DNA of 64,000 nt from Escherichia phage LQ5, in sequence record OR677401; one strand, written 5' to 3'. Of the stretch, positions 11,890-49,561 are shown piece by piece. How positions within the stretch are numbered: position 1 is the stretch's first letter; every line of letters begins with the position of its first letter. The notes below the pieces were generated by a model, which was not told where the DNA came from, searched no databases, and worked only from the letters and a program-made list of their open reading frames with translations. The position numbers and the translations under genes were made by a program.

Positions 11890-12348
11890 ATGATTATGAT
11901 TATCAATGCAAACTCTTGGCACGCTAAACTTCATGACCGTTTTTATGACAGTCATTCTCGACCGCACTCTTTATGTGCTTACTTCTGGAAAATGGTTTGG
12001 GCTTGTTTTGCTTGTGCTGTTGTTGCAGGTAGTACGCTTTTTGGATTAACTGTTGCAGGTGTTGGTGTATTAGAGCATTTCTTTGTATTAAGTACCCCTG
12101 TTCTGTTGAGTCTAGGGTTTGTTTTAGGATTGGTTGCAATAGCTCTTATTATTGCGCTATCCATTGGTTTGGCATTCGGTGTGATGAATTTACACGCATG
12201 GTATGATGCCCGTAGAGAAGAAAAGGAATGGCAACGTATTCAAGCTGAGCGTGAAGGCCGAGAAACTAAAGAAAATATCGTTATTCAATACATTAAAGCT
12301 CGTAAATCTAAGGTCTGTCCGGTAATCCACTTCGAGGACAAAGAATGA
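11890..12348 (+). CDS. hypothetical membrane protein
   Basis: three to four hydrophobic helices. Confidence 0.6.
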   Translation: MIMIINANSWHAKLHDRFYDSHSRPHSLCAYFWKMVWACFACAVVAGSTLFGLTVAGVGVLEHFFVLSTPVLLSLGFVLGLVAIALIIALSIGLAFGVMNLHAWYDARREEKEWQRIQAEREGRETKENIVIQYIKARKSKVCPVIHFEDKE

Positions 12349-13355
12349 GAACAGTTATGAAAGGCTACTTCGGTAGCCACCTTTATGGAACAAGTACTCC
12401 AGAATCTGATGTTGATTTTAAAGAAATCTTTGTTCCACATCCGCGTGATATTCTGTTAGGTACGGCTATGAACCATACCAACCTGAATACGAATAACACT
12501 GCTTCCAAAAACACTAAAGATGATGTTGACCACGAGCTTTACAGTCTGAAATATTTCTTTAAACTGGCTGCTGAAGGCGAAACCGTTGCTCTGGATATGC
12601 TCCACACTCCACCTGAAATGGTGGTTAAATCTGATTTACCTGATGTATGGAAATTTATCCAAGACAATCGTTCACGGTTCTATACAACCAACATGAAAGC
12701 CTATTTAGGGTACGTCCGTAAGCAAGCTTCTAAATATGGTGTTAAAGGTTCTCGTCTGGCTGCTCTGCGTGGTGTACTGGCAATCGTTAACCAGATTCCT
12801 GAACAGTGGGTTGACTATCAAGAAGGAATCCCTGATAGACTTCGTCGTACTAAGGTAGAAGATATCAAACACAGACTCCCTGAAAATGAGTTCTGTGAAT
12901 GGGTATTCCATAACCATGAGAAAACAGGCCCTCAAACGTTCTATACTGTTCTAGGACGTAAGTACCAAACTACTTTGTCTTTAATCGAGCTCAAGCAATC
13001 TCTGAATAAGCTTGATGCTGAATATGGCGAACGTGCTCGTAAGGCTGAAGCTAATGAAGGTATCGATTGGAAAGCTCTGAGCCATGCTTATCGGGCTGGA
13101 TATCAATTGTTGGAAATCTACCAAACAGGCGACCTGGTATTCCCATTGCGCGAAGCCTCTATCATTAAGCTGATTAAGGCCGGTGAACTTCCATTTAAAG
13201 AGGTCCAAGAACTTCTTGAAGACACTGTTGACCTGGTTGAAGTCCTGGCCCTGCAAGCCGCTAAGAACGGTATGCCTGCTAAGGTAGATATGAAGTTCTG
13301 GGACAAGTTTGTTGAAGAGGTATACCTTGACAACCACAACTCTTATTATCGATAA
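12345..13355 (+). CDS. predicted nucleotidyltransferase-fold protein
   Basis: N-terminal GSHLYGTSTPESDVDFKEIF resembles the G-S...D.D nucleotidyltransferase signature. Confidence 0.5.
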   Translation: MRTVMKGYFGSHLYGTSTPESDVDFKEIFVPHPRDILLGTAMNHTNLNTNNTASKNTKDDVDHELYSLKYFFKLAAEGETVALDMLHTPPEMVVKSDLPDVWKFIQDNRSRFYTTNMKAYLGYVRKQASKYGVKGSRLAALRGVLAIVNQIPEQWVDYQEGIPDRLRRTKVEDIKHRLPENEFCEWVFHNHEKTGPQTFYTVLGRKYQTTLSLIELKQSLNKLDAEYGERARKAEANEGIDWKALSHAYRAGYQLLEIYQTGDLVFPLREASIIKLIKAGELPFKEVQELLEDTVDLVEVLALQAAKNGMPAKVDMKFWDKFVEEVYLDNHNSYYR

Positions 13356-13362
13356 CGAAGAA

Positions 13363-13551
13363 ATGAAGGTCTTTTTATCATATGGAAGACCCCATAAAAC
13401 CCGACGTTGGTATCTTGAAGCTGTCTGTAAAGAAACCGGACGTCGAGTCAATATCAAGTACGTGTGCAAACCTACGCCTAAACAGACAAGACAATTTGTT
13501 AACTGGGCTATAAATGATATACGCTTCCATAATTTTTGGAGCGCAATTTAG
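13363..13551 (+). CDS. hypothetical basic protein
   Basis: ORF ending inside terminator stem. Confidence 0.45.
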   Translation: MKVFLSYGRPHKTRRWYLEAVCKETGRRVNIKYVCKPTPKQTRQFVNWAINDIRFHNFWSAI

Positions 13552-13573
13552 GAACCTTCGGGTTCCTTTTTTG
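13551..13573 (+). terminator. rho-independent terminator
   Basis: ggaacc-ttcg-ggttcc then T6. Confidence 0.85.
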
Positions 13574-13591
13574 GGTTTAGTGCAAAAAAGA

Positions 13592-13620
13592 GTTTACACC
13601 TTCGTAGAGCATGTTATTAT
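13592..13620 (+). promoter_or_regulatory. T4-type early promoter
   Basis: GTTTAC ... GTTATTATGGACCTATCAA; leader gagtgaaatggagaatataatg duplicated at 361-384. Confidence 0.6.
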
Positions 13621-13657
13621 GGACCTATCAAATCTACTGAGTGAAATGGAGAATATA

Positions 13658-14638
13658 ATGTTAACTATCAAAATCAACAAAGGTATCTATCGCGGTAATG
13701 TAATCTCTGGTACGTTCATGAGTTCAGGTAAAACCTGGTTCCCTAATAAAATTCATGAATCCGAAGCTCACCTCGGTGATGGCAAGGTATTCGTACAGAT
13801 TGATGGTGTTGAACGTGGTGTATGGGTATTCAAATGTGATATCGAAACCGAAGGCGCACCAGCTCCTGCAATGGTTACTGAATCCGCTGAAGAAATGAAA
13901 CACCGTATCAACAAACGTTTTAAAGTAATGAACATGATGACTAACGGAATCATCGATGGTAAAATTCGTTCCCTTATAATCTCTGGTGCCGCAGGTATTG
14001 GTAAAACATATTCTTTGGATAAAGCATTACAGAATGCCCACGAAAATGAAACTATCGAATATAAATCAATCAACGGAAAGATTAGTGGAATCGGTCTTTA
14101 CGAGCAGCTTTGGAATAACCGCGGCCCTAATAGTGTTCTTCTTATTGATGATGTTGATGTATTCTCTGATATGGATATCCTGAACCTGTTAAAAGCAGCA
14201 TTGGATACTGGTGAAAAACGTAAGGTGTGCTGGAGCACTTCAAGTTCTTATCTTGATGATAAAAATATCGATAAAGAATTTGAGTATGAAGGCACCATCG
14301 TGTTCATCACCAACGTTGATATTGACCGTGAATTAGAGCGTGGAACTAAACTTGCTCCACACCTCCAGGCTTTAGTATCGCGTTCAGTTTACTTAGACCT
14401 CGGAGTTCACTCGAACGAAGAGATTATGGTTCGTGTTGAAGACGTTATCCTGTCCACTGATATGATGCAAAACCGTGGTCTGACTGATGCCGAGACTTAC
14501 CAAGCTTTAGCATGGATGAAGGCTAATGTATCTCGTCTTCGTAACGTATCATTACGTACAGCTCTTTATCTGGCGGACTTCATTGCCACCGATAAAAATG
14601 ACTGGAGCGAAATCGCTGAAGTTACACTTCTGAAATAA
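13658..14638 (+). CDS. AAA-type ATPase
   Basis: Walker A GAAGIGKTYSL, Walker B-like VLLIDDVD. Confidence 0.7.
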   Translation: MLTIKINKGIYRGNVISGTFMSSGKTWFPNKIHESEAHLGDGKVFVQIDGVERGVWVFKCDIETEGAPAPAMVTESAEEMKHRINKRFKVMNMMTNGIIDGKIRSLIISGAAGIGKTYSLDKALQNAHENETIEYKSINGKISGIGLYEQLWNNRGPNSVLLIDDVDVFSDMDILNLLKAALDTGEKRKVCWSTSSSYLDDKNIDKEFEYEGTIVFITNVDIDRELERGTKLAPHLQALVSRSVYLDLGVHSNEEIMVRVEDVILSTDMMQNRGLTDAETYQALAWMKANVSRLRNVSLRTALYLADFIATDKNDWSEIAEVTLLK

Positions 14639-20333: not shown

Positions 20334-21407
20334 ATGCAAGATTTCGGGCATTGGGCGGTATTTGAAGAAGTTGATATTAAAAATTATATTGGATTTGTGT
20401 ATGTAATCACTTTTGAAGATGGCAAAAAATATGTCGGTGCTAAAAAGATTTGGAAACGAATCAAAGCTGCACCTTGCACATTTAAACGTGGTCCTAAAAA
20501 AGGGTTTGAGGAATCTGATTGGAAAACCTATACCTCATCATCCAATGAATTGAACGCAATGATAGAAAAGGGTATAAGTCCAAAAGAATATCTTATTGTA
20601 GGATGGTACCCTACTTGGGGTAAAACTCTTATGGCAGAAATGGAAATGCAATTAGCCAATGATGTTTTACGAGACCCTATGTGGCTCAATAAACAAATTG
20701 GCGGGCATTTCAACCCTAACTGCTTTGACGATTTAACAGAGGATGATATTGCAAGATGGATGGAATTTGATAAAGGGAATGAGCATGTTTCTTGGCCTAT
20801 GATGTATAAAATTGGCCAGAAAACCAAGTACGTTAAACCTGATGAAGTTAGTGAGTATATTAAATCTGGATGGCAATTTGGTCGTTCTAAAATGGAAAAA
20901 CATTCTGTTACCTATAATTGCTCTAAATTTACTATATGGGACTATGAAGAAAACAAGCCGGTGGAAGTAATAAATCAAAACGAATTCGCTCGTAATAATG
21001 ATTTAAGTAGCAACCATTTAACAAGGCTTCTTCAAGGAACCCTCGACCTAATTAAAGACCGATGGGGCCTTCCACCAGATATTGCTCGTCAGCGTTATAA
21101 ATTTCAGGACGTTTCTTCAGGAACAAAATTTTTATCCAATTCCGAGTTAGAAGAATTTTACGGTATGACTCGCGGTCAGGCTAACAAAGCTATTAAAGAT
21201 GGAAGAGCTGTTAAATTAGTAGTCGAAAGCAAAGAAGACCATATTAAAAAACTTGGCTCTATCGAATTGGTAAAAACCGAAAAGACAAAAGTTACGTCTC
21301 AAGTAATGCTTAACAGTTTTAAAGATATAGTTAATCCTATGACTACTGCCGAAAAATCAGAAATGATTGAATGGTTGGAAAGTTATATAACTTATTTGAA
21401 ATCTTAA
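20334..21407 (+). CDS. GIY-YIG-like homing endonuclease (seg-type)
   Basis: N-terminal YIGFVYVITFEDGKKYVGAKK fits the GIY...YIG pattern; AT-rich gene. Confidence 0.5.
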   Translation: MQDFGHWAVFEEVDIKNYIGFVYVITFEDGKKYVGAKKIWKRIKAAPCTFKRGPKKGFEESDWKTYTSSSNELNAMIEKGISPKEYLIVGWYPTWGKTLMAEMEMQLANDVLRDPMWLNKQIGGHFNPNCFDDLTEDDIARWMEFDKGNEHVSWPMMYKIGQKTKYVKPDEVSEYIKSGWQFGRSKMEKHSVTYNCSKFTIWDYEENKPVEVINQNEFARNNDLSSNHLTRLLQGTLDLIKDRWGLPPDIARQRYKFQDVSSGTKFLSNSELEEFYGMTRGQANKAIKDGRAVKLVVESKEDHIKKLGSIELVKTEKTKVTSQVMLNSFKDIVNPMTTAEKSEMIEWLESYITYLKS

Positions 21408-25907: not shown

Positions 25908-26762
25908 ATGAAATACATTACATACCTGACAATATATTCCGGGACTAAGCTTCCACCGTTTTATATAGGGTCCACTACTTTAGAGAAGCATTTAAAAGGA
26001 TACCATGGGAGCGTCCTTTCTAAAGCATATAAAGAAATCTATAACAAGGAGCTTTTAGAGCATCCTGAATTATTTGACTCATGTATTGTAAGTGAACACC
26101 CTACAAGAGAAGAGGCTTTAGAAGCTGAAAGAATGTACCAGTTAAGAACCGATGCGGCCCAAAATCCTCTATTCTTTAATATGGCTGTCGCAGCTCCTAA
26201 AGGATTCTTTGGGCTTTCGCTACCTAAAGAGCAACACCCTCTTTACGGCTCTCATAATGCTAAAGGATATATTCATTCCTATAATCCTGTTACATTAGAA
26301 CAAACCTTTGCACCTACAGTCCCCGAAGGATACGTAGAAGGTCGTTCTCCTAATTATAAAGCGTCTAGTCATAATAAGGGTAAGAAGTGGTATAACAATG
26401 GCGTTGATAAAGGATTATTTGTAGAAGGAAAACAACCTGAATCTTGGGTCCTTGGCAGTTTTCTAACCGATGAACATAAGAAAAACTTGAAAAAGACCGA
26501 TGGGATATATGACCCTGATATTCAAAAAGAATTAAAAGAGCTTTGGATTTCTACTGGATTTTTGCCACCGTATAAATTTAGAGAAATAGCTTTAGCTAAA
26601 GGTTTTATGGATGGTAATTATCACAATTTGGTTTATAAAATTTTTAAGCCTACAGTTACAATTACTAGACCTAAGAAAATCTGGGCTAATGACGGCATAA
26701 AAAGCTTTATGATTTCTGAGATAGAATTTAATAGTGAAATACATTATAAAGGTAGATTATGA
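25908..26762 (+). CDS. GIY-YIG-like putative homing endonuclease
   Basis: YITYLTIYSGTKLPPFYIGST N-terminus; AT-rich; sits where T4 carries alpha-glucosyltransferase. Confidence 0.4.
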   Translation: MKYITYLTIYSGTKLPPFYIGSTTLEKHLKGYHGSVLSKAYKEIYNKELLEHPELFDSCIVSEHPTREEALEAERMYQLRTDAAQNPLFFNMAVAAPKGFFGLSLPKEQHPLYGSHNAKGYIHSYNPVTLEQTFAPTVPEGYVEGRSPNYKASSHNKGKKWYNNGVDKGLFVEGKQPESWVLGSFLTDEHKKNLKKTDGIYDPDIQKELKELWISTGFLPPYKFREIALAKGFMDGNYHNLVYKIFKPTVTITRPKKIWANDGIKSFMISEIEFNSEIHYKGRL

Positions 26763-33862: not shown

Positions 33863-36574
33863 ATGCAAGAATTCTATTTGACAGTCGAACAAATCGGTGA
33901 TAATATTCTCGAACGTTACATCGATAAAAATGGTAACGAACGTAGTCGTGAAGTTCCATACAAGCCTACAATGTTTATGCATGCTAATCCAGAGCAAGCC
34001 GTAAAATACATTGATATCTATGGTAAGGGTTGTGTTAAGAAAGAATTCGACTCTATGCGTGATGCATCCCAATGGATGAAACGTATGGATGATATGGGCC
34101 TCGAAGCCCTGGGTATGGACGACTATAAATTAGCCTATTTGTCTGATACCTATCGTAAAGAAATCAAATATGATTCTTCTAAGATTCGTATTGCTAACTT
34201 CGACATCGAGGTAACATCTCCTGATGGATTCCCTGAACCAGCTCAGGCTAAACATCCTATCGATGCCATTACCCACTACGACTCGATTGACGATAAATTC
34301 TATGTATTCGACCTTTTAGTTTCGCCTTATGGTACTGTTGAAGAGTGGTCGATTAAAATCGCTGAGAAACTCCAAGACGAAGGTGGTGACGAAGTTCCAC
34401 AGGAAATCATTGACAAAATCGTTTATCTTCCGTTTAATTCTGAAGAAGAAATGATGCTTGAGTACTTGAATTTCTGGCAACAGAAAACTCCTGTGATTTT
34501 GACTGGATGGAACGTTGAGTCGTTTGACGTACCGTACGTTTATAACCGTCTGAAAAATCTGTTCGGTGAGAACACTGCTAAGCGATTAAGCCCACATCGT
34601 AAAACTCGTGTTAAAGTTATTGAGAACATGTACGGTGCTCGTGAAATCATTACATTGTTCGGTATCTCTGTTCTGGATTATATCGACCTCTATAAAAAAT
34701 TCAGCTTCACCAACCAGCCTTCTTATTCTCTGGATTATGTTTCTGAATATGAATTGAAAGTGGGTAAGTTGAAATATGATGGTCCAATCTCTAAGTTACG
34801 TGAGACGAACCACCAACGATATATTTCCTATAACATTATCGACGTATATCGTGTAGTGCAGATTGATATGAAGCGTCAGTTCATTCTTCTGAGTTTGGAC
34901 ATGGGTTATTATGCCAAGATGCAGATTCAGTCGGTGTTCAGTCCAATTAAGACTTGGGACGCTATTATCTTTAATAGCCTTAAAGAGCAAGGCAAGGTAA
35001 TTCCACAAGCTCGTTCACACGTGGTTCAACCTTATCCCGGTGCTTTCGTTAAGGAACCTATTCCTAACGCTTACAAATATGTAATGAGTTTCGACCTTAC
35101 ATCTCTGTACCCGAGTATCATTCGACAAGTGAATATAAGCCCAGAGACCATCGCAGGGACATTCGCTAACGCACCGATACATGAATATATTGCCGGAACA
35201 GCTCCGCGTCCTAGCGACGTCTACAGTTGCTCTCCTAACGGCATGATGTACTATAAAGACCGCGATGGTGTGATTCCTACAGAAATCACCAAGGTGTTCT
35301 TACAACGTAAAGAACATAAAGGTTATATGCTTGCAGCTCAACGTAATGGTGAGTTAATTAAAGAAGCATTAGAAAATCCTAATCTCTCGGTTGATAGTCC
35401 ACTGGATATCGATTATCGTTTTGACTTCTCTGACGAAATCAAAGCCAAGATTAAAACGCTGTCAGCACCTTCTTTAAGAGAAATGTTGTTCAGAGCTGAA
35501 CGTACCGAAGTTGCAGGTATGACTGCTCAGATTAACCGTAAGTTGCTTATCAACTCCCTTTATGGTGCACTTGGTAACGTATGGTTCCGTTATTACGACC
35601 TCAGGAACGCAACTGCAATCACATTGTTTGGTCAAATGGCCCTCCAATGGATTGAACGTAAGGTTAACGAATATCTGAATAGCGTGTGTAAGACTGAAAA
35701 CCAGAAGTTCGTGCTCTATGGTGATACTGACTCCATTTATGTTAAGGCGGATGCAATCATCAATAAAGTAGGCGAAGACAAATTCCGTGATACTAACCAC
35801 TGGGTTGACTTCTTAGATAAATTTGCACGTGAACGTATGGAACCGGCTATTGATGCAGGCTTCCGTGAGATGTGCGAGTACATGAACAACAAACAGCACT
35901 TGATGTTCATGGACCGAGAAGCTATCGCAGGTCCTCCACTTGGTTCTAAAGGTCTTGGTGGATTCTGGACAGGTAAGAAACGTTATGCACTGAACGTTTG
36001 GGACATGGAAGGTACTCGTTATGCCGAACCGCACTTGAAAATCATGGGTCTCGAAACCCAGAAATCAAGTACACCTAAAGCAGTTCAGAAAGCTCTGAAA
36101 GAATGTATCCGTCGTATGCTTCAGGAAGGCGAGGCCTCTTTGCAAGAATATTTCAAACAGTTTAATAAGGAATTTAACGAACTAAACTATGTAAGCATTG
36201 CAGCAGTATCCAGTGCTAACAACATCGAGAAATATAATGAAGGTGGATTCCCGGGTTCTAAATGTCCATACCACATCAAAGGTTGCTTAGCTTACATGCG
36301 TGCTTCTGCAGGTGATTTGACTATGCCTCGTATCGTTGATGGTGAAAAGGTATATGTACTGCCACTTAAAGAAGGCAACCCGTTTGGTGAAGCTTGTATG
36401 GCATGGCCGTCAGGTATTGAACTTCCGGTTCAGATTCGTGACCAAGTCCTCCGTTGGATGGACTACAACGTACTGTTCCAAAAGACCTTTATCAAACCTC
36501 TGACCGGTTTTACTGAGTCTGCTAAAATCGACTACGAGAAAAAAGCAACATTATTTGATATGTTCGACTTTTAA
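33863..36574 (+). CDS. 43: DNA polymerase gp43 (family B)
   Basis: exo motifs FDIEV, YNIIDV; pol motifs DLTSLYPS, YGDTDS; very close to RB69 gp43 as recalled; start trimmed to MQEFYLT. Confidence 0.97.
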   Translation: MQEFYLTVEQIGDNILERYIDKNGNERSREVPYKPTMFMHANPEQAVKYIDIYGKGCVKKEFDSMRDASQWMKRMDDMGLEALGMDDYKLAYLSDTYRKEIKYDSSKIRIANFDIEVTSPDGFPEPAQAKHPIDAITHYDSIDDKFYVFDLLVSPYGTVEEWSIKIAEKLQDEGGDEVPQEIIDKIVYLPFNSEEEMMLEYLNFWQQKTPVILTGWNVESFDVPYVYNRLKNLFGENTAKRLSPHRKTRVKVIENMYGAREIITLFGISVLDYIDLYKKFSFTNQPSYSLDYVSEYELKVGKLKYDGPISKLRETNHQRYISYNIIDVYRVVQIDMKRQFILLSLDMGYYAKMQIQSVFSPIKTWDAIIFNSLKEQGKVIPQARSHVVQPYPGAFVKEPIPNAYKYVMSFDLTSLYPSIIRQVNISPETIAGTFANAPIHEYIAGTAPRPSDVYSCSPNGMMYYKDRDGVIPTEITKVFLQRKEHKGYMLAAQRNGELIKEALENPNLSVDSPLDIDYRFDFSDEIKAKIKTLSAPSLREMLFRAERTEVAGMTAQINRKLLINSLYGALGNVWFRYYDLRNATAITLFGQMALQWIERKVNEYLNSVCKTENQKFVLYGDTDSIYVKADAIINKVGEDKFRDTNHWVDFLDKFARERMEPAIDAGFREMCEYMNNKQHLMFMDREAIAGPPLGSKGLGGFWTGKKRYALNVWDMEGTRYAEPHLKIMGLETQKSSTPKAVQKALKECIRRMLQEGEASLQEYFKQFNKEFNELNYVSIAAVSSANNIEKYNEGGFPGSKCPYHIKGCLAYMRASAGDLTMPRIVDGEKVYVLPLKEGNPFGEACMAWPSGIELPVQIRDQVLRWMDYNVLFQKTFIKPLTGFTESAKIDYEKKATLFDMFDF

Positions 36575-36576
36575 GT

Positions 36577-36606
36577 GTTTACATACCACAAGGAACGTGG
36601 TAGTAT
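36577..36606 (+). promoter_or_regulatory. T4-type early promoter
   Basis: GTTTAC ... TAGTAT then cctatcaac. Confidence 0.55.
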
Positions 36607-36636
36607 CCTTCCTATCAACTACATGAGGAAATTACA

Positions 36637-36873
36637 ATGGAAGCTTTAATCGTTAGTGCTGGTGTTTTAGGATTCGGTTCTCTGGTTATTATGTTCATCG
36701 GTTACTTTTTACCATGGATTCTGGCTCTTCTGCGAGGCACTCGTAGTAATGTCGGAATTTTCTTCCTTAATCTCCTGTTAGGCTGGACGATGATTGGTTG
36801 GGTAGTGGCTTTAATCTGGGCTATCGTCGCTGAACGTAAATCAAACGCACAAATCATTATTGTTAAGCAATGA
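36637..36873 (+). CDS. imm: superinfection-immunity (Imm)-like small membrane protein
   Basis: two TM helices with GIFFLNLLLGWTMIGWVVALIWAI; position between genes 43 and 42 as for T4 imm. Confidence 0.4.
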   Translation: MEALIVSAGVLGFGSLVIMFIGYFLPWILALLRGTRSNVGIFFLNLLLGWTMIGWVVALIWAIVAERKSNAQIIIVKQ

Positions 36874-37007
36874 AAATAATTATTTTATTTCTTATAATGA
36901 CTGCCTTTACCATTTATTGGGCAGTGGCAATTCCGCCAATGATTCCGACACTAATCATCGGATGGATTATTCTTATAGCACAAATTAAGTATAACTGTTT
37001 TAATTGA
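36870..37007 (+). CDS. hydrophobic micro-protein (45 aa)
   Basis: ATGA-coupled; single TM; not in ORF track (below 60 aa). Confidence 0.35.
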   Translation: MKIIILFLIMTAFTIYWAVAIPPMIPTLIIGWIILIAQIKYNCFN

Positions 37008-37014
37008 GGATATT

Positions 37015-37515
37015 ATGAAAAAGTTAATTATCGCAATGAGTATGCTCCTATCAGGTTGTGCGGTCCAATATGGTGATGCAGTTTCGGCTGATGAAGTTGG
37101 TAAAGCTCGTATCGCAGCTGAACAGAAACAATTCGATGGCGAAATGAAATTCCGTGCAGGTTCTGGACTTGTGTACACCCGAGCCAATAATCAATGTGGT
37201 AATAACTGTGCAAAATATGCTCAAAGGGAAATCGAATTCCAACGTGAACAAGAGTCTAAGCGTGAAGCGGTACTAGCCAAACACCAGGCAGAAATGAAGC
37301 GTCAAGATGATTTGTACAAAAAGCAGAAACTGTATGCGATGTGCGTAAACCATATCAATCTACAGATTTCCATCCACGAGGCTCGTTATTACGAAATGCT
37401 CGAAACCGAGAGCTTCGGTAAAGCTCGTGATTATAAGAAACAAATCGATAAGCTCAAGACCAAAGCACCGGCGGCAATAAAACAGTGTATTGAAATCGGT
37501 AAAGATAAGATTTAA
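37015..37515 (+). CDS. lipoprotein
   Basis: lipobox-like LLSGC after signal MKKLIIAMSM. Confidence 0.6.
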   Translation: MKKLIIAMSMLLSGCAVQYGDAVSADEVGKARIAAEQKQFDGEMKFRAGSGLVYTRANNQCGNNCAKYAQREIEFQREQESKREAVLAKHQAEMKRQDDLYKKQKLYAMCVNHINLQISIHEARYYEMLETESFGKARDYKKQIDKLKTKAPAAIKQCIEIGKDKI

Positions 37516-37575
37516 GCAATACCAATTTATTAAAAATAGTGTATAATGTACCTACATTCACTTGAGGAACAGATA

Positions 37576-39249
37576 ATGAAAAAGGTTGTTATTTTAGGCG
37601 CGGGTCTTGGCTCACGGTTGTATCCAATTACCAACGAAATCCCGAAGGTACTGGTTAACTACAAACAACATACTGTATTAAAACATTTGTATGATTTGTA
37701 TAGTAATCAATCAGATGAAATTATTCTGGTTATTCACAGCAAATTTAACGACCTCGTTAAAGGCTATATTAAATCCATTAACATGATTAATAGTGATAAG
37801 CCCAAATTCACTATTCGTAACGTTGATGTTGCCAATGGTTCGGCTCATGCTATCGATTGCATTGCCGAAGATATCATTGGGCACAATGTCTTGTTTAACT
37901 GGTGTGATATTATTCCTGAAGGTCATAAAGTTGAGTGGGATAACGACTACTGTTATACCTATGGGACTGACTGTCGTTTTACATTTGAAGAACCGTACTT
38001 GCGTGAAATTGGTACCGGTGGTGGTGTGGTTGGTTTGTATCAGGTTGCTAATTGGACAGGCTTCAACCGTTCTAATTATGGCGAAGACCTTGCTGATAAC
38101 CTGGATTCGATGGTCCATTTGACCGAACGTAAGCTGGACTTTGTAGTTGATGTCGGTGACAAATTGAAACTGGCTAAGGCCCATGAAGATTCTGAAATTA
38201 ACCGTGAATTTAATAAATTAGAGTTCACTGAGAATCTAGCTATTAAAGTACCTACAAACGAATTAGGTAAAGAAATCCAATCTAAAGAAATCAATTGGTA
38301 CAATTCTATTGATTCTGAATTCGTTCCTAGCATTGTAGACTTTGCTCCAGGTGAATTCATTAAAATGGAACGTATCTTTGGTCGAACCATGGCAGATGCC
38401 TACCGGTTTATGTCTAAAGAAACTAAAGTCCTAATGGTTTATAAGGTTATTAGTGCATTACGTTCGTTCGGTGGAACTATCGATAATCCGTCCGATGAGC
38501 AATGGTATTCTGATGTTAAGAAAGAAGTATTGGACAAGGTCCTTATTCGTAATGCTTCTATTGCCGGATTGATTGAAGGCTTTGCTCCACAGGGTATTAC
38601 CCATGTTAACGACTTCAAGGTAGGCGACCCAGAAAAACTTCTTCGTCACGCCTTAGAAATTCTGTCTGAACATAAAGAACCGTACCAACTTATTCATGGC
38701 GACCCGCACTACAGTAATATTATGTTGTCGGACGAAGGTAATATTAAAATCATCGACCCACGTGGTTATTTTGGTAATAGTTCTAAAGGCCCTGCGATTT
38801 ATGATGAAGCTAAGGTGCTTTATTCTATCGATGGTTATGACAAATTTAACTCTGACCCTCTATGGGGCGGATTAACTCGTAACGGAACTCGTGTATTCGT
38901 TGATATTGAAAAGGTTATGCCTTTAGATGATATTCCGATGTGTACATTTAAGCACAAGCTCTGGATTGCCGTTATTTGGATGGCATTGGCAGGTTACTTT
39001 AAAAATAACCCTCTGAAAGCTCTGGGCGCTTATTACAATGGGCTATATCAACTGAGTGTGCTGCTGAAGCGGCATCCTCGTAAGCGTAAGCTTATCACAG
39101 GTGAATTCGTTGATGAAGTTCGCGACCCTATCACGGCTCAAATTATCACTCGTTGTCCTGATAAGTGGGTTTTGCTTGACCAAGAAACTGGTGTAAAATA
39201 TAAACCTACAGGTTCTACCGAACTCCACAAACAATGGAAGAAAATTTAA
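37576..39249 (+). CDS. bifunctional nucleotidyltransferase / kinase (predicted sugar-1-phosphate nucleotidyltransferase fused to APH/choline-kinase-like kinase)
   Basis: N-terminus ILGAGLGSRLYPITNEIPKVL matches the NTP-transferase glycine loop; C-terminus LIHGDPHYSNIML ... IIDPRGY matches the HGD..N / D-x-x-G kinase catalytic and metal loops. Confidence 0.65.
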   Translation: MKKVVILGAGLGSRLYPITNEIPKVLVNYKQHTVLKHLYDLYSNQSDEIILVIHSKFNDLVKGYIKSINMINSDKPKFTIRNVDVANGSAHAIDCIAEDIIGHNVLFNWCDIIPEGHKVEWDNDYCYTYGTDCRFTFEEPYLREIGTGGGVVGLYQVANWTGFNRSNYGEDLADNLDSMVHLTERKLDFVVDVGDKLKLAKAHEDSEINREFNKLEFTENLAIKVPTNELGKEIQSKEINWYNSIDSEFVPSIVDFAPGEFIKMERIFGRTMADAYRFMSKETKVLMVYKVISALRSFGGTIDNPSDEQWYSDVKKEVLDKVLIRNASIAGLIEGFAPQGITHVNDFKVGDPEKLLRHALEILSEHKEPYQLIHGDPHYSNIMLSDEGNIKIIDPRGYFGNSSKGPAIYDEAKVLYSIDGYDKFNSDPLWGGLTRNGTRVFVDIEKVMPLDDIPMCTFKHKLWIAVIWMALAGYFKNNPLKALGAYYNGLYQLSVLLKRHPRKRKLITGEFVDEVRDPITAQIITRCPDKWVLLDQETGVKYKPTGSTELHKQWKKI

Positions 39250-39608
39250 TGCATCTGTGTTTTGATATCGATAATACCATTACTCACTGGCAAGATGACC
39301 GTGATTACGAAAACTTTAAACCGGACACCGAAATGGTGTCCATGATTAATAAGCTTTATGATGAAGGGTACGAGATTACCTTGTTCACTGCCCGTGGTAT
39401 GACTTCATGCGGCCCGGGTCGAATCTTGGTTGAAGTAGTTCCTGCATTAGTTAAGAACCTTGAAAAGATTGGATTGAAATATCACAATCTGCTTACACAT
39501 AAGCCGAGTTATACTTTTATCATCGATGACCGAGCAATCCGTCCTGACCACTTTAAAGAAATGGTTCGTGAAGGAACTCTTGAAACCTATAAGGCATATC
39601 ATCCGTGA
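39234..39608 (+). CDS. HAD-superfamily phosphatase
   Basis: motif I CFDIDNTIT (DxDxT), motif IV FIIDD; alternative start at 39249. Confidence 0.6.
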   Translation: MEENLMHLCFDIDNTITHWQDDRDYENFKPDTEMVSMINKLYDEGYEITLFTARGMTSCGPGRILVEVVPALVKNLEKIGLKYHNLLTHKPSYTFIIDDRAIRPDHFKEMVREGTLETYKAYHP

Positions 39609-40141
39609 AACCAAAAATCATTGTTATCGACGGCCCGGATAATTCCGGGAAGTCTACTTTAATTGAATCACTTTTATCTGATAAGAAATATCGTCTTATC
39701 GATTTCCCTAAAAAGATTAACGGCAAATGCATTTCATTAGGGACTGATAATGACAAGGCTTTAGTCGAGACGTTGTATAAGTTTTTAGACCCTAATTTTG
39801 TCTACATCTTAGACCGTGGGTATCCTAGTAATATTGTTTACTCTGGATTCCTTCGTGGTGAAATGGACCCTTATGTAGAATTAGCAGATTGGATTGATTT
39901 CAAAAAAGAATTCAATATCATTGAGATTATTTTAACCCGTAATCCATTAGATGAAGACTTTGAAGATGACCTTATTAAATTAACCAAAGATGAGTTCAAC
40001 CTAACTATCCAGCAATATGAAACATGTTTTGAAAACGTGTTTAAAATCTTAAATCACGACGGCCATAATAACTTGCTTAACGTCGATATGGTAGAATTAA
40101 AACGTCTGAATGAATATATTGAAAATAAGGTGAATAAATGA
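39605..40141 (+). CDS. P-loop (thymidylate-kinase-like) nucleotide kinase
   Basis: IVIDGPDNSGKSTL Walker A; LDRGY resembles the Tmk DRY motif. Confidence 0.6.
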   Translation: MKPKIIVIDGPDNSGKSTLIESLLSDKKYRLIDFPKKINGKCISLGTDNDKALVETLYKFLDPNFVYILDRGYPSNIVYSGFLRGEMDPYVELADWIDFKKEFNIIEIILTRNPLDEDFEDDLIKLTKDEFNLTIQQYETCFENVFKILNHDGHNNLLNVDMVELKRLNEYIENKVNK

Positions 40142-40836
40142 AACACATTACCGCTGTTAGTTTTGAAAACGCGTTTAAGCAAATGAACGAAGAAATCCTG
40201 GAAGCTCCACAGTTTGCAGTTGATTCTCGTATCGGCCGTTGTTATGAAATTGGTTCTGCTTCGGTAGAAGTACTGGATGCAAGCACCTATAAATTCACCG
40301 ACCCTCGTATTAATCGTATCAACTATGATTATGCCGAATCCTTTTGGAAGTTTATGATTTCTGGTGGTACTGACGCTGCTGAAGCATTTAAGGAATATCC
40401 TAATGTTGCTAAGTTCATTGATAAGCCGAAAAGTGACGTATTGCCTGCAAACTTCAACACTTTCTATGGACCTCGAATTGTGGCCCAACTCCCGGCCCTA
40501 CTTAAAGAGCTTAAAGAGAAGCCTAACTCAAGACGAGTTGTGTTCCAAATTCTCCAAGAACAAGACCAGGCCCTCCTTGATTCTGACGAATCCTTAGAAT
40601 ACCCATGTACCGATTCGGTGACATATTATATTCGTGATGGACGTCTGTATGCACATACTCATATGCGTTCACAGAACTGTGCTATCGTTATGCAGCTGGA
40701 TTTCTATCTGCAGGGTAAACTGATGGCCTTTATTGCTGAACAGTGTGGTGTTGGTCTGGGTACGTATTCCCATACTATGGTTAGTGCACACGTATTTGAA
40801 CGTGATTTTGACTACGTTCGAGGATTCCTGAAATGA
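40138..40836 (+). CDS. 42: thymidylate-synthase-family pyrimidine hydroxymethylase (dCMP hydroxymethylase-like, gp42 slot)
   Basis: catalytic EYPCTDS cysteine; MRSQNCAIVMQLD aligns by eye with T4 gp42 MRSNDVVFGFRND, Asp at the TS Asn specificity position. Confidence 0.65.
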   Translation: MKHITAVSFENAFKQMNEEILEAPQFAVDSRIGRCYEIGSASVEVLDASTYKFTDPRINRINYDYAESFWKFMISGGTDAAEAFKEYPNVAKFIDKPKSDVLPANFNTFYGPRIVAQLPALLKELKEKPNSRRVVFQILQEQDQALLDSDESLEYPCTDSVTYYIRDGRLYAHTHMRSQNCAIVMQLDFYLQGKLMAFIAEQCGVGLGTYSHTMVSAHVFERDFDYVRGFLK

Positions 40837-41726
40837 GTTTGTTTATCGTTCCTATTTTCAGTATGCGTAGTTACGAAACAGGTGAATATGCCGTCCTTAA
40901 GGACGGTAATTTTCAACTCCATTTAAACCGTGCTTGCCCAGGTGATTATCTGGCTTATCCTAGAAATTCGAGCGATATCAAAGAATGCATTGAATTATTT
41001 CCTGAACTGAATTTTGTACCGCTTTGGTATAAAGAAAATGCTTATGAAACTCGTAAACATTTTTGGTCTGAAAACGAGTTCGTTGTTGATTCGTTAATCG
41101 AATACTATGACTGCTCAGGATTGGTAACCGATATCACAGGTTATGATGGCACTCAGACTGTACAATTCAACTTTAACATTACAATGGACCCTGAAGTTCC
41201 TCGTTATTATATCGACGAGTTTATTGATACCGACGTGTCCTCAGTTGAACGTTCGATTTATACCACAGTCCTGAATCAATGTCAGAAAGACGTCCTGGTG
41301 TCACGAGGTGCGTCCTCTGATAAGATTTTTGTAGACCAAAAGGTAATTAATCCGGCAGTAATTGAGCGTTACTCTGAAGGCCTAGCGCCTATTAAAATTG
41401 ATGGTATTTTCCACCCATTCCGTATTTCGGATAAGTGTTATCAATTCGAAAGAGTTGTAGACCAAGCTGCGGCTGAAGGTGCTCGTCTTTATATCACCGA
41501 CCCGAATGATTCATTTAAGCGTGAAGACTATCGTCCTGATGTAGAGATTATTAAATTCAAACCGAGTAAGGTTGAATATTATCAGATTCTGAAATCAAGA
41601 CCTCATATCATTTATCATGAGAATCCCGGTTTAGTATTCCATCCTGGTCTGGCTGAATTCATTTATTTCGGTGCCCATATCCATTCTGAGCACGAAATGC
41701 CAAGTTATGAGGACGTGGTCCTTTAA
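40833..41726 (+). CDS. hypothetical protein in the beta-glucosyltransferase slot (candidate DNA sugar transferase)
   Basis: 297-aa ORF ATGA-coupled to hydroxymethylase; no recognisable T4 beta-gt similarity. Confidence 0.35.
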   Translation: MSLFIVPIFSMRSYETGEYAVLKDGNFQLHLNRACPGDYLAYPRNSSDIKECIELFPELNFVPLWYKENAYETRKHFWSENEFVVDSLIEYYDCSGLVTDITGYDGTQTVQFNFNITMDPEVPRYYIDEFIDTDVSSVERSIYTTVLNQCQKDVLVSRGASSDKIFVDQKVINPAVIERYSEGLAPIKIDGIFHPFRISDKCYQFERVVDQAAAEGARLYITDPNDSFKREDYRPDVEIIKFKPSKVEYYQILKSRPHIIYHENPGLVFHPGLAEFIYFGAHIHSEHEMPSYEDVVL

Positions 41727-41803
41727 CGCTGTAAATGTGAAGTGATATAATTACCCTATCTTAAAACGTGAGTAAAATATAATGATGCCTATGGAAAAAT
41801 ATA

Positions 41804-42976
41804 ATGTCTGATTTAAAATCCCGTTTGATTAAAGCTTCTACTTCTAAAATGACTGCCGACCTGACCAAATCTAAATTGTTTAATGGTCGTGACGAAGTTC
41901 CTACTCGTATCCCTATGCTGAATATTGCATTAGGCGGTGCGTTGAATGCAGGCTTACAATCAGGTTTGACAATCTTTGCTGCTCCATCTAAACACTTTAA
42001 AACGTTGTTTGGACTTACCATGGTTGCGGCATATATGAAGAAATATCCAGACGCAATTTGTTTGTTCTACGACTCTGAGTTTGGTGCTTCAGAATCTTAT
42101 TTCCGTTCGATGGGTGTTGATTTAGAACGTGTGGTTCATACACCAATCCAGTCAGTCGAACAGCTTAAAGTTGATATGACCAACCAATTAGAAGAAATTA
42201 CTCGTGGCGAAAAGGTTATTATCTTTATCGACTCTATCGGTAACACTGCTTCTAAGAAAGAAACCGAAGATGCTTTGAACGAGAAAGTTGTAGGTGATAT
42301 GACTCGTGCTAAATCACTGAAATCTCTGTTCCGTATCGTAACACCTTATCTGACCATCAAAGATATCCCTTGTGTAGCAATTAACCATACGGCTATGGAA
42401 ATTGGTGGAATGTACCCTAAAGAGATTATGGGTGGTGGTACTGGTATTCTGTACTCTGCTTCTACCGTGTTCTTTATCTCTAAACGTCAGGTTAAAGATG
42501 GTACTGAGCTCACTGGTTATGACTTCACACTGAAGGCCGAGAAATCTCGTACGGTTAAAGAGAAATCAACGTTCCCGATTACAGTGAACTTCGAAGGTGG
42601 TATCGACCCATTCAGTGGATTGCTTGAAATGGCTACTGATATCGGCTTTGTCGTGAAACCTAAAGCTGGTTGGTATAATCGTGCATTCCTTGACGAAACC
42701 ACAGGTGAAATGGTTCAAGAAGAAAAAGCATGGCGTGCTAAAGCTACCGATTGTGTCGAGTTCTGGGGACCGCTGTTTAAACATGCCCCGTTCCGTGAAG
42801 CAATCGAGAATAAGTATAAGCTCGGTGCAATTAATTCTATTAAAGAAGTTGACGATGCAGTGAACGACCTTATTAACTCTCGTGTCTCTAAGAACGTTGC
42901 TGTTAAATTAGGTGGTAATGCCCAAAGCGCCGCTGATATCGAAAACGATTTAGAAGAGATGGATTTAGATGACTGA
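41804..42976 (+). CDS. uvsX: recombinase UvsX (RecA-like)
   Basis: collinear with T4 UvsX as recalled (MSDLKSRLIKASTSK ... CLFYDSEFG ... ETEDALNEKVV.DMTRAK). Confidence 0.95.
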   Translation: MSDLKSRLIKASTSKMTADLTKSKLFNGRDEVPTRIPMLNIALGGALNAGLQSGLTIFAAPSKHFKTLFGLTMVAAYMKKYPDAICLFYDSEFGASESYFRSMGVDLERVVHTPIQSVEQLKVDMTNQLEEITRGEKVIIFIDSIGNTASKKETEDALNEKVVGDMTRAKSLKSLFRIVTPYLTIKDIPCVAINHTAMEIGGMYPKEIMGGGTGILYSASTVFFISKRQVKDGTELTGYDFTLKAEKSRTVKEKSTFPITVNFEGGIDPFSGLLEMATDIGFVVKPKAGWYNRAFLDETTGEMVQEEKAWRAKATDCVEFWGPLFKHAPFREAIENKYKLGAINSIKEVDDAVNDLINSRVSKNVAVKLGGNAQSAADIENDLEEMDLDD

Positions 42977-48378: not shown

Positions 48379-49035
48379 ATGAATTACGAAAAAATATACC
48401 AGGAATTAATATCTAAAGGAAAATTAAGAGGTTCTAAGCGGTCTTTATCATATTATACGGAAGAACACCATGTTATACCTAGATGTATGAATGGTTCTGA
48501 TGATAAAAACAATTTAGTTGCTTTATTGCCAAGAGAACACTTTGTAGCTCATAGGCTTTTAACAAAAATATATCCCGAAGTAAAAGGTCTACATTATGCT
48601 GTTAATTTAATGAGATATAATAAAGGAGTTAAATTAACTAGTAGAACTATAGCCACGTTAAGAGAAAATAACGCTAAAGCATTTTCAGGAAAAAATAACC
48701 CGATGTTTGGTAAACCTTCCTGGATTAGAGGGATGAAAACTCCTGAAGAAACTAAAGCCAAAATGCGCCTGGCTCATAAAGATAAAATTATATCTGATGA
48801 AGCCAAGGCCAATATGAGTAAAGCTAGAAAAGGAAGATTTAGTGGTAAAGATTCCCCTAGATATGGTTTACCGAATCCTAGGCGTGGAGAAATATGGAAT
48901 AGTTACGATATGCTTTACGAATTATGGGTTTACAATAATAAACCTAAACGCACCAAATTTAATAAAATAGCTGTTGATAATGGATATCCTGATATTTGTT
49001 ATCGACGAATGATAGAAAACTTTAATAGGAAATAA
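48379..49035 (+). CDS. HNH homing endonuclease with C-terminal DNA-binding repeats
   Basis: EEHHVIPRCMNGSDDKNNLVALLPREHFVAHRL HNH core; repeats NNPMFGK, TPEETKAKM, SDEAKANMSKARKG; AT-rich. Confidence 0.8.
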   Translation: MNYEKIYQELISKGKLRGSKRSLSYYTEEHHVIPRCMNGSDDKNNLVALLPREHFVAHRLLTKIYPEVKGLHYAVNLMRYNKGVKLTSRTIATLRENNAKAFSGKNNPMFGKPSWIRGMKTPEETKAKMRLAHKDKIISDEAKANMSKARKGRFSGKDSPRYGLPNPRRGEIWNSYDMLYELWVYNNKPKRTKFNKIAVDNGYPDICYRRMIENFNRK

Positions 49036-49039
49036 TATA

Positions 49040-49561
49040 ATGGCATTTTTTAACGAATGTAGTGGTTTGATTTCTGGTGTTGATAAAGCTGAGGAAGCTT
49101 ATTTTAATGCTCTGATTCATGAAGATAAAGACCCTCTGCAGGTTATGCTTGATATGCAGAAATCATTACAGGTCCGTTTGGCTACTGAAAAATCTGAATT
49201 TAACTCTAACCCCGATGAACTGGCTACTGCAGGTCAAGTTGTCGATTGGCTTCGCAACCAGAAAGATTATATTGATGACGAATTCCGTGAACTGTTGACT
49301 TCTCTTGGTGGCATGAGCAATGGCGAAAAAGATGCATCTGCAGTATGGAAGCCTTGGAAAGCTCAACATGCTGAACGTCGTGAAACCCTGATTAACGATT
49401 TGTCTCCTGAAGACCAGCTCGAAATTAAATTCGAAATGATTGATATTCTGCACTTTGTTCTGAATATGTTCCAAGGTCTTGGACTGACTGCTGAAGAAAT
49501 CTTTAAACTGTATTACCTGAAAAATGCCGAGAACTTTGCTCGCCAGGACCGAGGTTATTAA
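49040..49561 (+). CDS. 56: dCTPase/dUTPase gp56 (MazG-like)
   Basis: collinear with T4 gp56 as recalled (DPLQVMLDMQ ... DDEFRELLTSLG ... EIFKLYYLKNAENFARQDRGY). Confidence 0.9.
   Translation: MAFFNECSGLISGVDKAEEAYFNALIHEDKDPLQVMLDMQKSLQVRLATEKSEFNSNPDELATAGQVVDWLRNQKDYIDDEFRELLTSLGGMSNGEKDASAVWKPWKAQHAERRETLINDLSPEDQLEIKFEMIDILHFVLNMFQGLGLTAEEIFKLYYLKNAENFARQDRGY

Follow-up and report, generated by a model that had tools for sequence, protein, structure and literature searches.

The 64,000-nucleotide stretch of Escherichia phage LQ5 analysed here (sequence record OR677401; hereafter the window) contains, at 40138-40836 on the plus strand, an open reading frame (ORF) which very probably represents the Dhakavirus orthologue of the phage 5-hydroxy-deoxycytidine monophosphate (5-hydroxy-dCMP) synthase, the enzyme known as AfhB in phage HY126, gp48 in RB69 and gp80 in DLP3. 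This reading is built on homology, on the signature residues and the fold of the protein, and on the structure of the operon and the gene content, all of them established in the present analysis. The enzyme family as such is already known: it was described in 2025-2026, solved structurally and extended to the Dhakaviruses by comparative genomics, and Lee et al. (NAR 2026, PMC13326640) explicitly included the Dhakaviruses in the genera that possess the syntenic gene cluster.

An earlier, sequence-only reading had taken this ORF for a divergent hydroxymethylase of the thymidylate-synthase family, and the limits that it gave to the gene proved exact in coordinates, strand and product length (232 amino acids). 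An AAGGTG Shine-Dalgarno sequence precedes the ATG start codon, which shares the tetranucleotide ATGA with the stop of the upstream gene, and the stop codon of the ORF in turn has bases in common with the ATG of the gene that follows. Specifically, the EYPCTDS motif lies at residues 154-160, with the Cys157 codon at 40606-40608, and the string MRSQNCAIVMQLD covers residues 176-188, with the Asp188 codon at 40699-40701. The inner ORFs at 40054-40488 and 40523-40672 (both on the minus strand) and at 40364-40597 (plus strand) gave no family match and were therefore treated as spurious.

Membership of the protein in the thymidylate-synthase superfamily is far beyond chance. It matches the Pfam family Thymidylat_synt (PF00303) with E=4.8e-14 (cut-off 24.3 bits) and PHROG 160 with 5.6e-43. 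When the chains of the Protein Data Bank (PDB) were searched with phmmer, the top matches were 9IQC, 9IQU and 9IR2, at E=1.5e-125, followed by MilA at 2.5e-14 and T4 gp42 at 4.7e-6. Entries 9IQC and 9IQU were both released on 2025-07-16, the former entitled 'Monooxygenase dependent on riboflavin with dCMP and FAD' and the latter 'phage HY126 dCMP hydroxylase-AfhB with substrate dCMP'; the sequence of 9IQC is that of the HY126 coding sequence in PP658200. The AlphaFold 2 (AF2) model of the protein, with a mean predicted local distance difference test score (pLDDT) of 86.9 and a predicted template modelling score (pTM) of 0.85, matches thymidylate-synthase-fold structures, and its Foldseek comparison with 9IQC gave a query template modelling score (TMq) of 0.95 and a root-mean-square deviation (rmsd) of 1.8 Å at 79% identity.

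In sequence, the protein is 79% identical to HY126 AfhB, 78% to RB69 gp48 and 71% to DLP3 gp80, and identity reaches 81% with the counterpart of Serratia phage 92A1 and 69-71% with that of Thanatos. AfhB is the best conserved protein of its cluster, with 67-87% identity between genera. T4 gp42, on the other hand, is only 24-25% identical (25% over 159 amino acids), whereas the flanking gp43, gp44, gp62, regA, uvsX and gp41 share 52-77% identity with their T4 counterparts. The earlier statement that the gene is much more diverged from gp42 than the flanking replication genes are from their T4 equivalents is thus borne out and, on sequence comparison, the gene is not an ordinary gp42 orthologue.

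The active-site residues were placed by three alignments: a MAFFT alignment with Escherichia coli ThyA (from MG1655), T4 gp42, MilA and six phage homologues; the phmmer alignment to PDB chains, which covers the MilA equivalences only; and a profile built from 58 homologues and aligned to T4 gp42, ThyA and MilA. The three methods agree on Cys157 as the equivalent of ThyA C146 and T4 gp42 C148, which confirms the catalytic-cysteine context that had been recognised in EYPCTDS. Asp188 corresponds to ThyA N177 and T4 gp42 D179 both in the MAFFT alignment and in the 58-sequence profile, and to the equivalent Asp of MilA in the phmmer alignment. The by-eye match of this residue with gp42 Asp179 and ThyA Asn177 therefore stands: we looked in the alignments for an Asn at the specificity position, and the residue found there is Asp188. 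Given an Asp at the position that sets pyrimidine specificity, dCMP rather than deoxyuridine monophosphate (dUMP) is the expected substrate.

Asn180 takes the place of ThyA D169, T4 gp42 D171 and MilA D174 in the MAFFT alignment and in the profile. Glu154 corresponds to ThyA L143 and T4 gp42 D145; in this column the gap placed by MAFFT before the Cys is ambiguous, and both the profile and the fixed spacing at Cys-3 give Glu154. MAFFT also pairs ThyA W80 and gp42 W82 with Ala91, a column that is uncertain, with residues 90-106 poorly conserved and the pLDDT of the model below 50 at 97-106. Arg31, Tyr110, Arg132/133, Glu154, Cys157, Arg177/Ser178, Asn180, Asp188 and His218 are invariant in the 58 homologues, whose identity extends down to 50%, and the active-site strings of seven genera read (S/T)LEYPCTDS and MRS(Q/E)N(C/T)A(I/V)V(M/L)QLD.

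The chemistry of this family was described by Lee et al. (PMC13326640). RB69 gp48 and DLP3 gp80 convert dCMP to 5-hydroxy-dCMP, and both give 5-hydroxydeoxycytidine (5hodC) in E. coli; for RB69 gp48, 18O2 labelling traces the oxygen to O2, and the purified protein has a bound flavin. According to the same study, 5-hydroxy-dCMP synthases can be diagnosed by an Asn in place of ThyA D169, 9/9 natural D169N homologues tested having given 5hodC; the arabinose of RB69 DNA is linked by an ether bond to 5-hydroxycytosine (5hoC), not to 5-hydroxymethylcytosine (hmC); and Serratia phage 92A1 is cited as having arabinosylated 5hoC. With 71-79% identity to dCMP C5 hydroxylases, and with Asn180 as the D169N substitution, the expected product of the Dhakavirus protein is 5-hydroxy-dCMP rather than 5-hydroxymethyl-dCMP. 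The product, the O2-derived oxygen and the flavin would be those of the published orthologues, from which they are carried over, and methylene-tetrahydrofolate (CH2-THF) would not be expected as co-substrate.

The genomic setting was examined in the window, which is ~98% identical to the Dhakavirus phages QL01, WG01 and Bp7, and in the complete genome of QL01, the closest complete genome, pieced together from five stretches; both were searched by tblastn. Bases 37500-42000 of the window show 96-98.5% identity with Escherichia phages QL01, WG01, Bp7, MX01 and their relatives, a group assigned to Straboviridae, Tevenvirinae, genus Dhakavirus, and the synthase protein is 100% identical in QL01, PSD9 and SHP1. 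Genes are arranged in the order 43, imm, a lipoprotein-like ORF, a five-gene cluster, uvsX, 40 and 41, and the synthase gene, as a member of the cluster, fills the slot of T4 gene 42 plus beta-gt between gene 43/imm and uvsX. The whole QL01 genome holds two thymidylate-synthase homologues only, the synthase gene and td, the latter 47% identical to ThyA and located beside frd. Neither a second gp42-like gene nor a homologue of T4 beta-gt was found in the window or in QL01. The QL01 genome also encodes gp56, the gp1 deoxynucleoside monophosphate (dNMP) kinase, cd, denA, denB and alc, a set which, from gp1 to alc, fits a complete replacement of cytosine.

These data bear on two other readings of the gene. 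In the one put forward by the sequence-only reading, and carried as a label by several GenBank records, the protein would be a divergent gp42-like hydroxymethylase that turns dCMP into 5-hydroxymethyl-dCMP at the expense of CH2-THF, for later glycosylation. Superfamily, catalytic Cys and cytosine-specific Asp of that proposal are upheld by our alignments; its chemistry is not, in view of the identity to dCMP hydroxylases and of Asn180. The thymidylate-synthase fold, the Asp at the N177/D179 position and the acidic residue at Cys-3, as in gp42 (D145) and MilA, would suit such an enzyme, as would the gene-42 position, held with gene 43/imm on one side and uvsX on the other, and the 'dCMP hydroxymethylase' annotation given to the orthologues from phages of Klebsiella, Serratia, Acinetobacter and Shewanella. 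However, the 24-25% identity to gp42 compares with 79% to a crystallised dCMP hydroxylase, and orthology to gp42 fails once the 25% over 159 amino acids is set against the conservation of the neighbouring core genes. Moreover, the Asp common to ThyA, gp42 and MilA at position D169 is Asn180 here and an Asn in every close homologue, and all the natural homologues with this substitution that Lee et al. tested made 5hodC; the Trp shared by ThyA (Trp80) and gp42 (W82) also stands opposite an Ala, in the least confidently aligned region. As to RB69, its DNA was originally described as containing arabosyl-hmC (PMC6024577), which could be taken in favour of a hydroxymethylase, but the assignment has since been corrected to ether-linked 5-hydroxycytosine. 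All together, a hydroxymethylase appears very unlikely.

A second, dUMP-using thymidylate synthase, as the RefSeq product name in QL01, WG01 and Bp7 implies, is hardly credible. The matches to Pfam PF00303 and to PHROG families named 'thymidylate synthase' are in its favour, but the ThyA-177 position holds Asp and not Asn, and with the NCBIfam thymidylate-synthase equivalogs the protein attains 63.1 bits at best, where the cut-off is 174.55, and no more than 43 bits with the others, whose cut-offs are 108-427 (for example, 43 against 327). In addition, the protein is without the C-terminal segment of ThyA, and the normal td and frd of QL01 are found elsewhere in the genome. The 5-hydroxy-dCMP synthase is thus the assignment that we retain.

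Five closely packed ORFs, of which the synthase gene is the fourth, span 37576-41726; they are listed here together with gene 56:

37576-39249, plus strand: AfhE-like bifunctional sugar kinase and nucleoside diphosphate (NDP)-sugar pyrophosphorylase, with Pfam NTP_transferase at 13-110 and APH kinase at 356-427.

39234-39608, plus strand: AfhF-like HAD-family sugar phosphatase, 62% identical to the HY126 and RB69 gp51 proteins.

39605-40141, plus strand: thymidylate-kinase-like P-loop nucleotide kinase, with a GTG start and a match to PHROG 761 'thymidylate kinase' (2.8e-40).

40138-40836, plus strand: candidate 5-hydroxy-dCMP synthase (AfhB-type, thymidylate-synthase fold), 232 amino acids, ATG start.

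40833-41726, plus strand: homologue of the first, base-proximal DNA arabinosyltransferase (RB69 gp46:47, DLP3 gp79), in the position of T4 beta-gt, matching PHROG 3891 (2e-158).

49040-49561, plus strand: gp56 dCTPase/dUTPase, matching PHROG 173 (1.2e-44) and Pfam dUTPase_2; the QL01 orthologue is annotated as gp56 dCTPase.

Start and stop codons overlap all along the cluster (39234-39249, 39605/39608, 40138/40141 and 40833/40836), which indicates that the five genes belong to one translationally coupled operon. A scan of 36500-42000 for promoters and terminators returned sites no more frequent than in shuffled sequence, and an Rfam search across the whole window gave zero matches.

The AfhE-like protein shows 43% full-length identity to its HY126 counterpart and 44% to DLP3 gp82, and matches PHROG 4098 with 5.8e-269. 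Its longest ORF starts at 37546, 30 nucleotides earlier than the start at 37576 used by homologues and by the QL01 annotation. The AfhF-like protein matches PDB 9IQW (E=2.8e-53) and, under the cut-off, the NCBIfam capsule-biosynthesis phosphatase TIGR01689 (1.6e-14); its gene may start at 39249, as annotated in QL01, 15 nucleotides inside the longest ORF. For both proteins, the homologue alignments start at or after the QL01-annotated starts. The P-loop kinase is a conserved member of the modification cluster, 37-44% identical to RB69 gp45, DLP3 gp78 and the HY126 and Thanatos proteins (37-38% to RB69 gp45 and HY126) and 76% identical to that of Marfavirus VAC36. The arabinosyltransferase homologue shares 67% identity with the HY126 protein, 64-69% with RB69 gp46 and gp47 and 49.5% with DLP3 gp79; Pfam and PDB sequence searches with it were without match.

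Between imm and the cluster, a 166-amino-acid ORF at 37015-37515 (plus strand) encodes a lipoprotein signal peptide with the lipobox MKKLIIAMSMLLSGC and matches PHROG 1754, a family of unknown function. Given its position beside imm, the product may be a superinfection-exclusion-type lipoprotein. We also considered it as a stand-in for the sugar-phosphate isomerase of related clusters, a role ruled out by the lipoprotein signal, the lack of any Pfam or NCBIfam match and the lack of a homologue in the HY126, RB69, DLP3 and Thanatos loci.

For the synthase reading as a whole, some observations are unfavourable. In the window and in the complete QL01 genome, tblastn found no homologue of the arabinose-5-phosphate isomerase (RB69 gp55), of the U32-peptidase-like RB69 gp50, of a second arabinosyltransferase, of RB69 gp3 or of DLP3 gp76/77. 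The AfhE-like protein falls in a subclade (Dhakavirus, Marfavirus, Bragavirus) with 71-80% identity within and 43-47% to all others. Finally, the searchable literature yielded neither an enzyme assay nor a nucleoside analysis for a Dhakavirus, and on the chemistry of Dhakavirus DNA it offered genomic inference only. The reduced cluster and the separate AfhE subclade make the downstream sugar less certain than the hydroxylation step.

The same gene order and AfhE subclade as in Dhakavirus are found in Marfavirus (Klebsiella phage VAC36) and Bragavirus (Proteus phage SJ_PmiM), and, besides the window, AfhE-like genes of the subclade lie at 5001-6665 of locus L016 and 660-2318 of locus L017. The clusters of this subclade are without a SIS-type arabinose-5-phosphate isomerase and have the P-loop kinase 5' of the synthase. 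Marfavirus and Bragavirus do have a gene in the U32-like slot, annotated 'peptidase' in VAC36, the match being positional. In the arabinosylation clusters, the U32-peptidase-like gene always precedes one or two ORFs of 74-85 amino acids (8257-9662 of L005, corresponding to RB69 gp49 plus gp50; 5543-6822 of L002; 7675-9077 of L016; 6360-8004 of L015), and in Serratia 92A1 one such small ORF, directly upstream of the synthase, has a chorismate-mutase type 2 (CM_2) Pfam match. RB69 gp49 has no tblastn homologue in the window or in QL01.

These features allow for a true 5-hydroxy-dCMP synthase whose cluster, of the Dhakavirus/Marfavirus/Bragavirus type, decorates the hydroxyl with something other than the arabinose chains of RB69, HY126 and DLP3, a proposal that differs from ours downstream only and that we hold to be unlikely. 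It draws on the QL01 genome being without the isomerase, the U32-like gene and a second or third glycosyltransferase, on the subclade formed by the AfhE-like enzyme, and on the hexoses known on 5hoC from Rhizobium phage RL38J1. As for the subclade, the AfhE proteins of phages proven or reported to arabinosylate are themselves only 45-57% identical to one another; the enzyme evolves fast everywhere, the divergence of the AfhE-like protein is a weak mark of a different sugar, and we read the subclade as fast evolution. The HAD phosphatase and the first glycosyltransferase, moreover, show 62% and 67% identity with their HY126 counterparts. With regard to the isomerase, E. coli itself forms arabinose-5-phosphate through KdsD/GutQ, so that a phage enzyme would be dispensable, and a search of the 12.7-kb Thanatos-2 locus turned up no homologue of the isomerase. 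Thanatos is mono-arabinosylated with a single arabinosyltransferase (Lee et al. 2026, PMC13326640). There is, in our estimate, a slim chance that the Dhakavirus cluster, with its own AfhE subclade, one glycosyltransferase and neither isomerase nor U32-like gene, attaches to 5-hydroxycytosine some sugar that is not arabinofuranose. If it did, the result would be a hitherto undescribed cytosine hypermodification; the alternative is full reliance on the arabinose-5-phosphate of the host.

Starting from the 5-hydroxy-dCMP synthase assignment, a pathway can be proposed in which we infer for this phage the order of the steps in the mechanism, which sugar is attached and how many sugars there are. 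The enzyme would be a thymidylate-synthase fold in which folate has been exchanged for flavin. The phosphate of dCMP would be gripped by Arg31, Arg132/133 and Arg177/Ser178, and the N3/N4 face of cytosine recognised by Asp188. Cys157 would then attack C6, as in all thymidylate-synthase enzymes, making C5 nucleophilic, and the activated C5 would take oxygen from an O2-derived flavin peroxide in place of the methylene of CH2-THF; elimination of Cys157 would free 5-hydroxy-dCMP. Upstream, gp56 dCTPase would remove deoxycytidine triphosphate (dCTP) and supply dCMP, and downstream the gp1 dNMP kinase and the NDP kinase of the host would produce 5-hydroxy-dCTP, to be inserted by the replisome instead of deoxycytidine. 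The AfhE-like and AfhF-like products would provide an NDP-pentose, most likely uridine diphosphate (UDP)-arabinofuranose made from host arabinose-5-phosphate, and the single downstream glycosyltransferase would place the sugar on the 5-hydroxyl either after or before incorporation. With one glycosyltransferase only, as in Thanatos, the predicted outcome is mono-arabinosyl-5-hydroxycytosine, and the DNA would probably resist host nucleases.

Elsewhere in the window, three genes of homing-endonuclease type were observed, all on the plus strand: a SegE-like GIY-YIG gene at 20334-21407, an HNH gene at 25908-26762 and a NUMOD3-containing gene at 48379-49035, the last one directly upstream of gene 56. 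The nrdC region carries an RlaP-type nucleotidyltransferase at 12345-13355 (plus strand; RNA-repair pathway, pol-beta superfamily), followed by a 374-amino-acid AAA/STAND-like NTPase at 13514-14638 (plus strand; PHROG 1250, unknown function).

Database names for the synthase family are inconsistent and mostly wrong. Besides the 'thymidylate synthase' of the three RefSeq genomes and 'hypothetical protein', the names 'dCMP hydroxymethylase' and 'deoxycytidylate 5-hydroxymethyltransferase' occur (Klebsiella, Serratia, Acinetobacter and Shewanella phages; phage NC-G); some records call the adjacent HAD phosphatase 'phosphoheptose isomerase' and give the glycosyltransferase as 'RNA polymerase binding protein'. 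In a 2025 survey, an 'hmC' gene is scored as present in the Dhakaviruses (PMC12115623). The practical value of the reassignment is therefore corrective, the GenBank and RefSeq labels still being 'thymidylate synthase', 'dCMP hydroxymethylase' and 'hypothetical'. Dhakavirus phages are probably best regarded as 5-hydroxycytosine-glycoside phages, a status which bears on sequencing chemistry, on susceptibility to restriction and CRISPR, on Type IV sensitivity and on choices in phage therapy. More broadly, the family represents a thymidylate-synthase scaffold in which one-carbon transfer with folate has given way to hydroxylation with flavin and O2, and the resulting 5-O-glycosyl cytosines protect phage DNA against restriction and CRISPR.

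Compared with known systems, the protein stands closest to AfhB (PDB 9IQC, 9IQU and 9IR2), RB69 gp48 and DLP3 gp80, at 79%, 78% and 71% identity over the full length and with 232 amino acids against 235-238. The strings (S/T)LEYPCTDS and MRSQNCA(I/V)VMQLD are near-identical, the Cys, Glu(L143), Asn(D169) and Asp(N177) are all kept, and the gene occupies the same slot from DNA polymerase to uvsX, beside homologues of AfhE, AfhF, the kinase and the first glycosyltransferase. The cluster differs from theirs in being without the arabinose-5-phosphate isomerase, the U32-like protein and the second arabinosyltransferase, in having the kinase gene upstream rather than downstream of the synthase, and in an AfhE-like partner from a different subclade.

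With T4 gp42 (PDB 1B5E and 1B49), the protein has in common the thymidylate-synthase fold, a nucleophilic Cys (C148), cytosine recognition by Asp179 and an acidic residue at Cys-3 (D145). The two also agree in genome position and in the general plan, modification of dCMP ahead of replication followed by glycosylation. The identity, however, is 24-25%, with a phmmer E-value of 4.7e-6 as compared with 1.5e-125 for AfhB; Asp171 of gp42 is Asn180 here, and its Trp82 lies opposite an Ala in an uncertain column. Furthermore, gp42 uses folate and yields a -CH2OH product, whereas the characterised orthologues of the Dhakavirus protein use flavin and O2 and yield -OH.

MilA, the Streptomyces cytidine monophosphate (CMP) 5-hydroxymethylase (PDB 5B6D and 5JNH), is the next-closest solved structure (E=2.5e-14, TMq 0.83-0.86). 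It likewise has an Asp at the N177 position and an acidic residue (Asp) at the L143 position, and is cytosine-specific. Unlike the Dhakavirus protein, to which it is 25-27% identical, MilA retains Asp at D169, measures ~320-340 amino acids and uses the ribonucleotide CMP with CH2-THF, in antibiotic biosynthesis instead of DNA modification. Finally, ThyA and T4 td have in common with the protein the fold, the Cys, the equivalents of Arg126/127, Arg166/Ser167, Tyr94 and His207, and the covalent addition at C6. In comparison with them, the Dhakavirus protein is 19% identical, has no C-terminal folate lid, coexists in QL01 with a genuine td encoded elsewhere, and carries Asp for N177, Asn for D169, Glu for L143 and Thr for H147.

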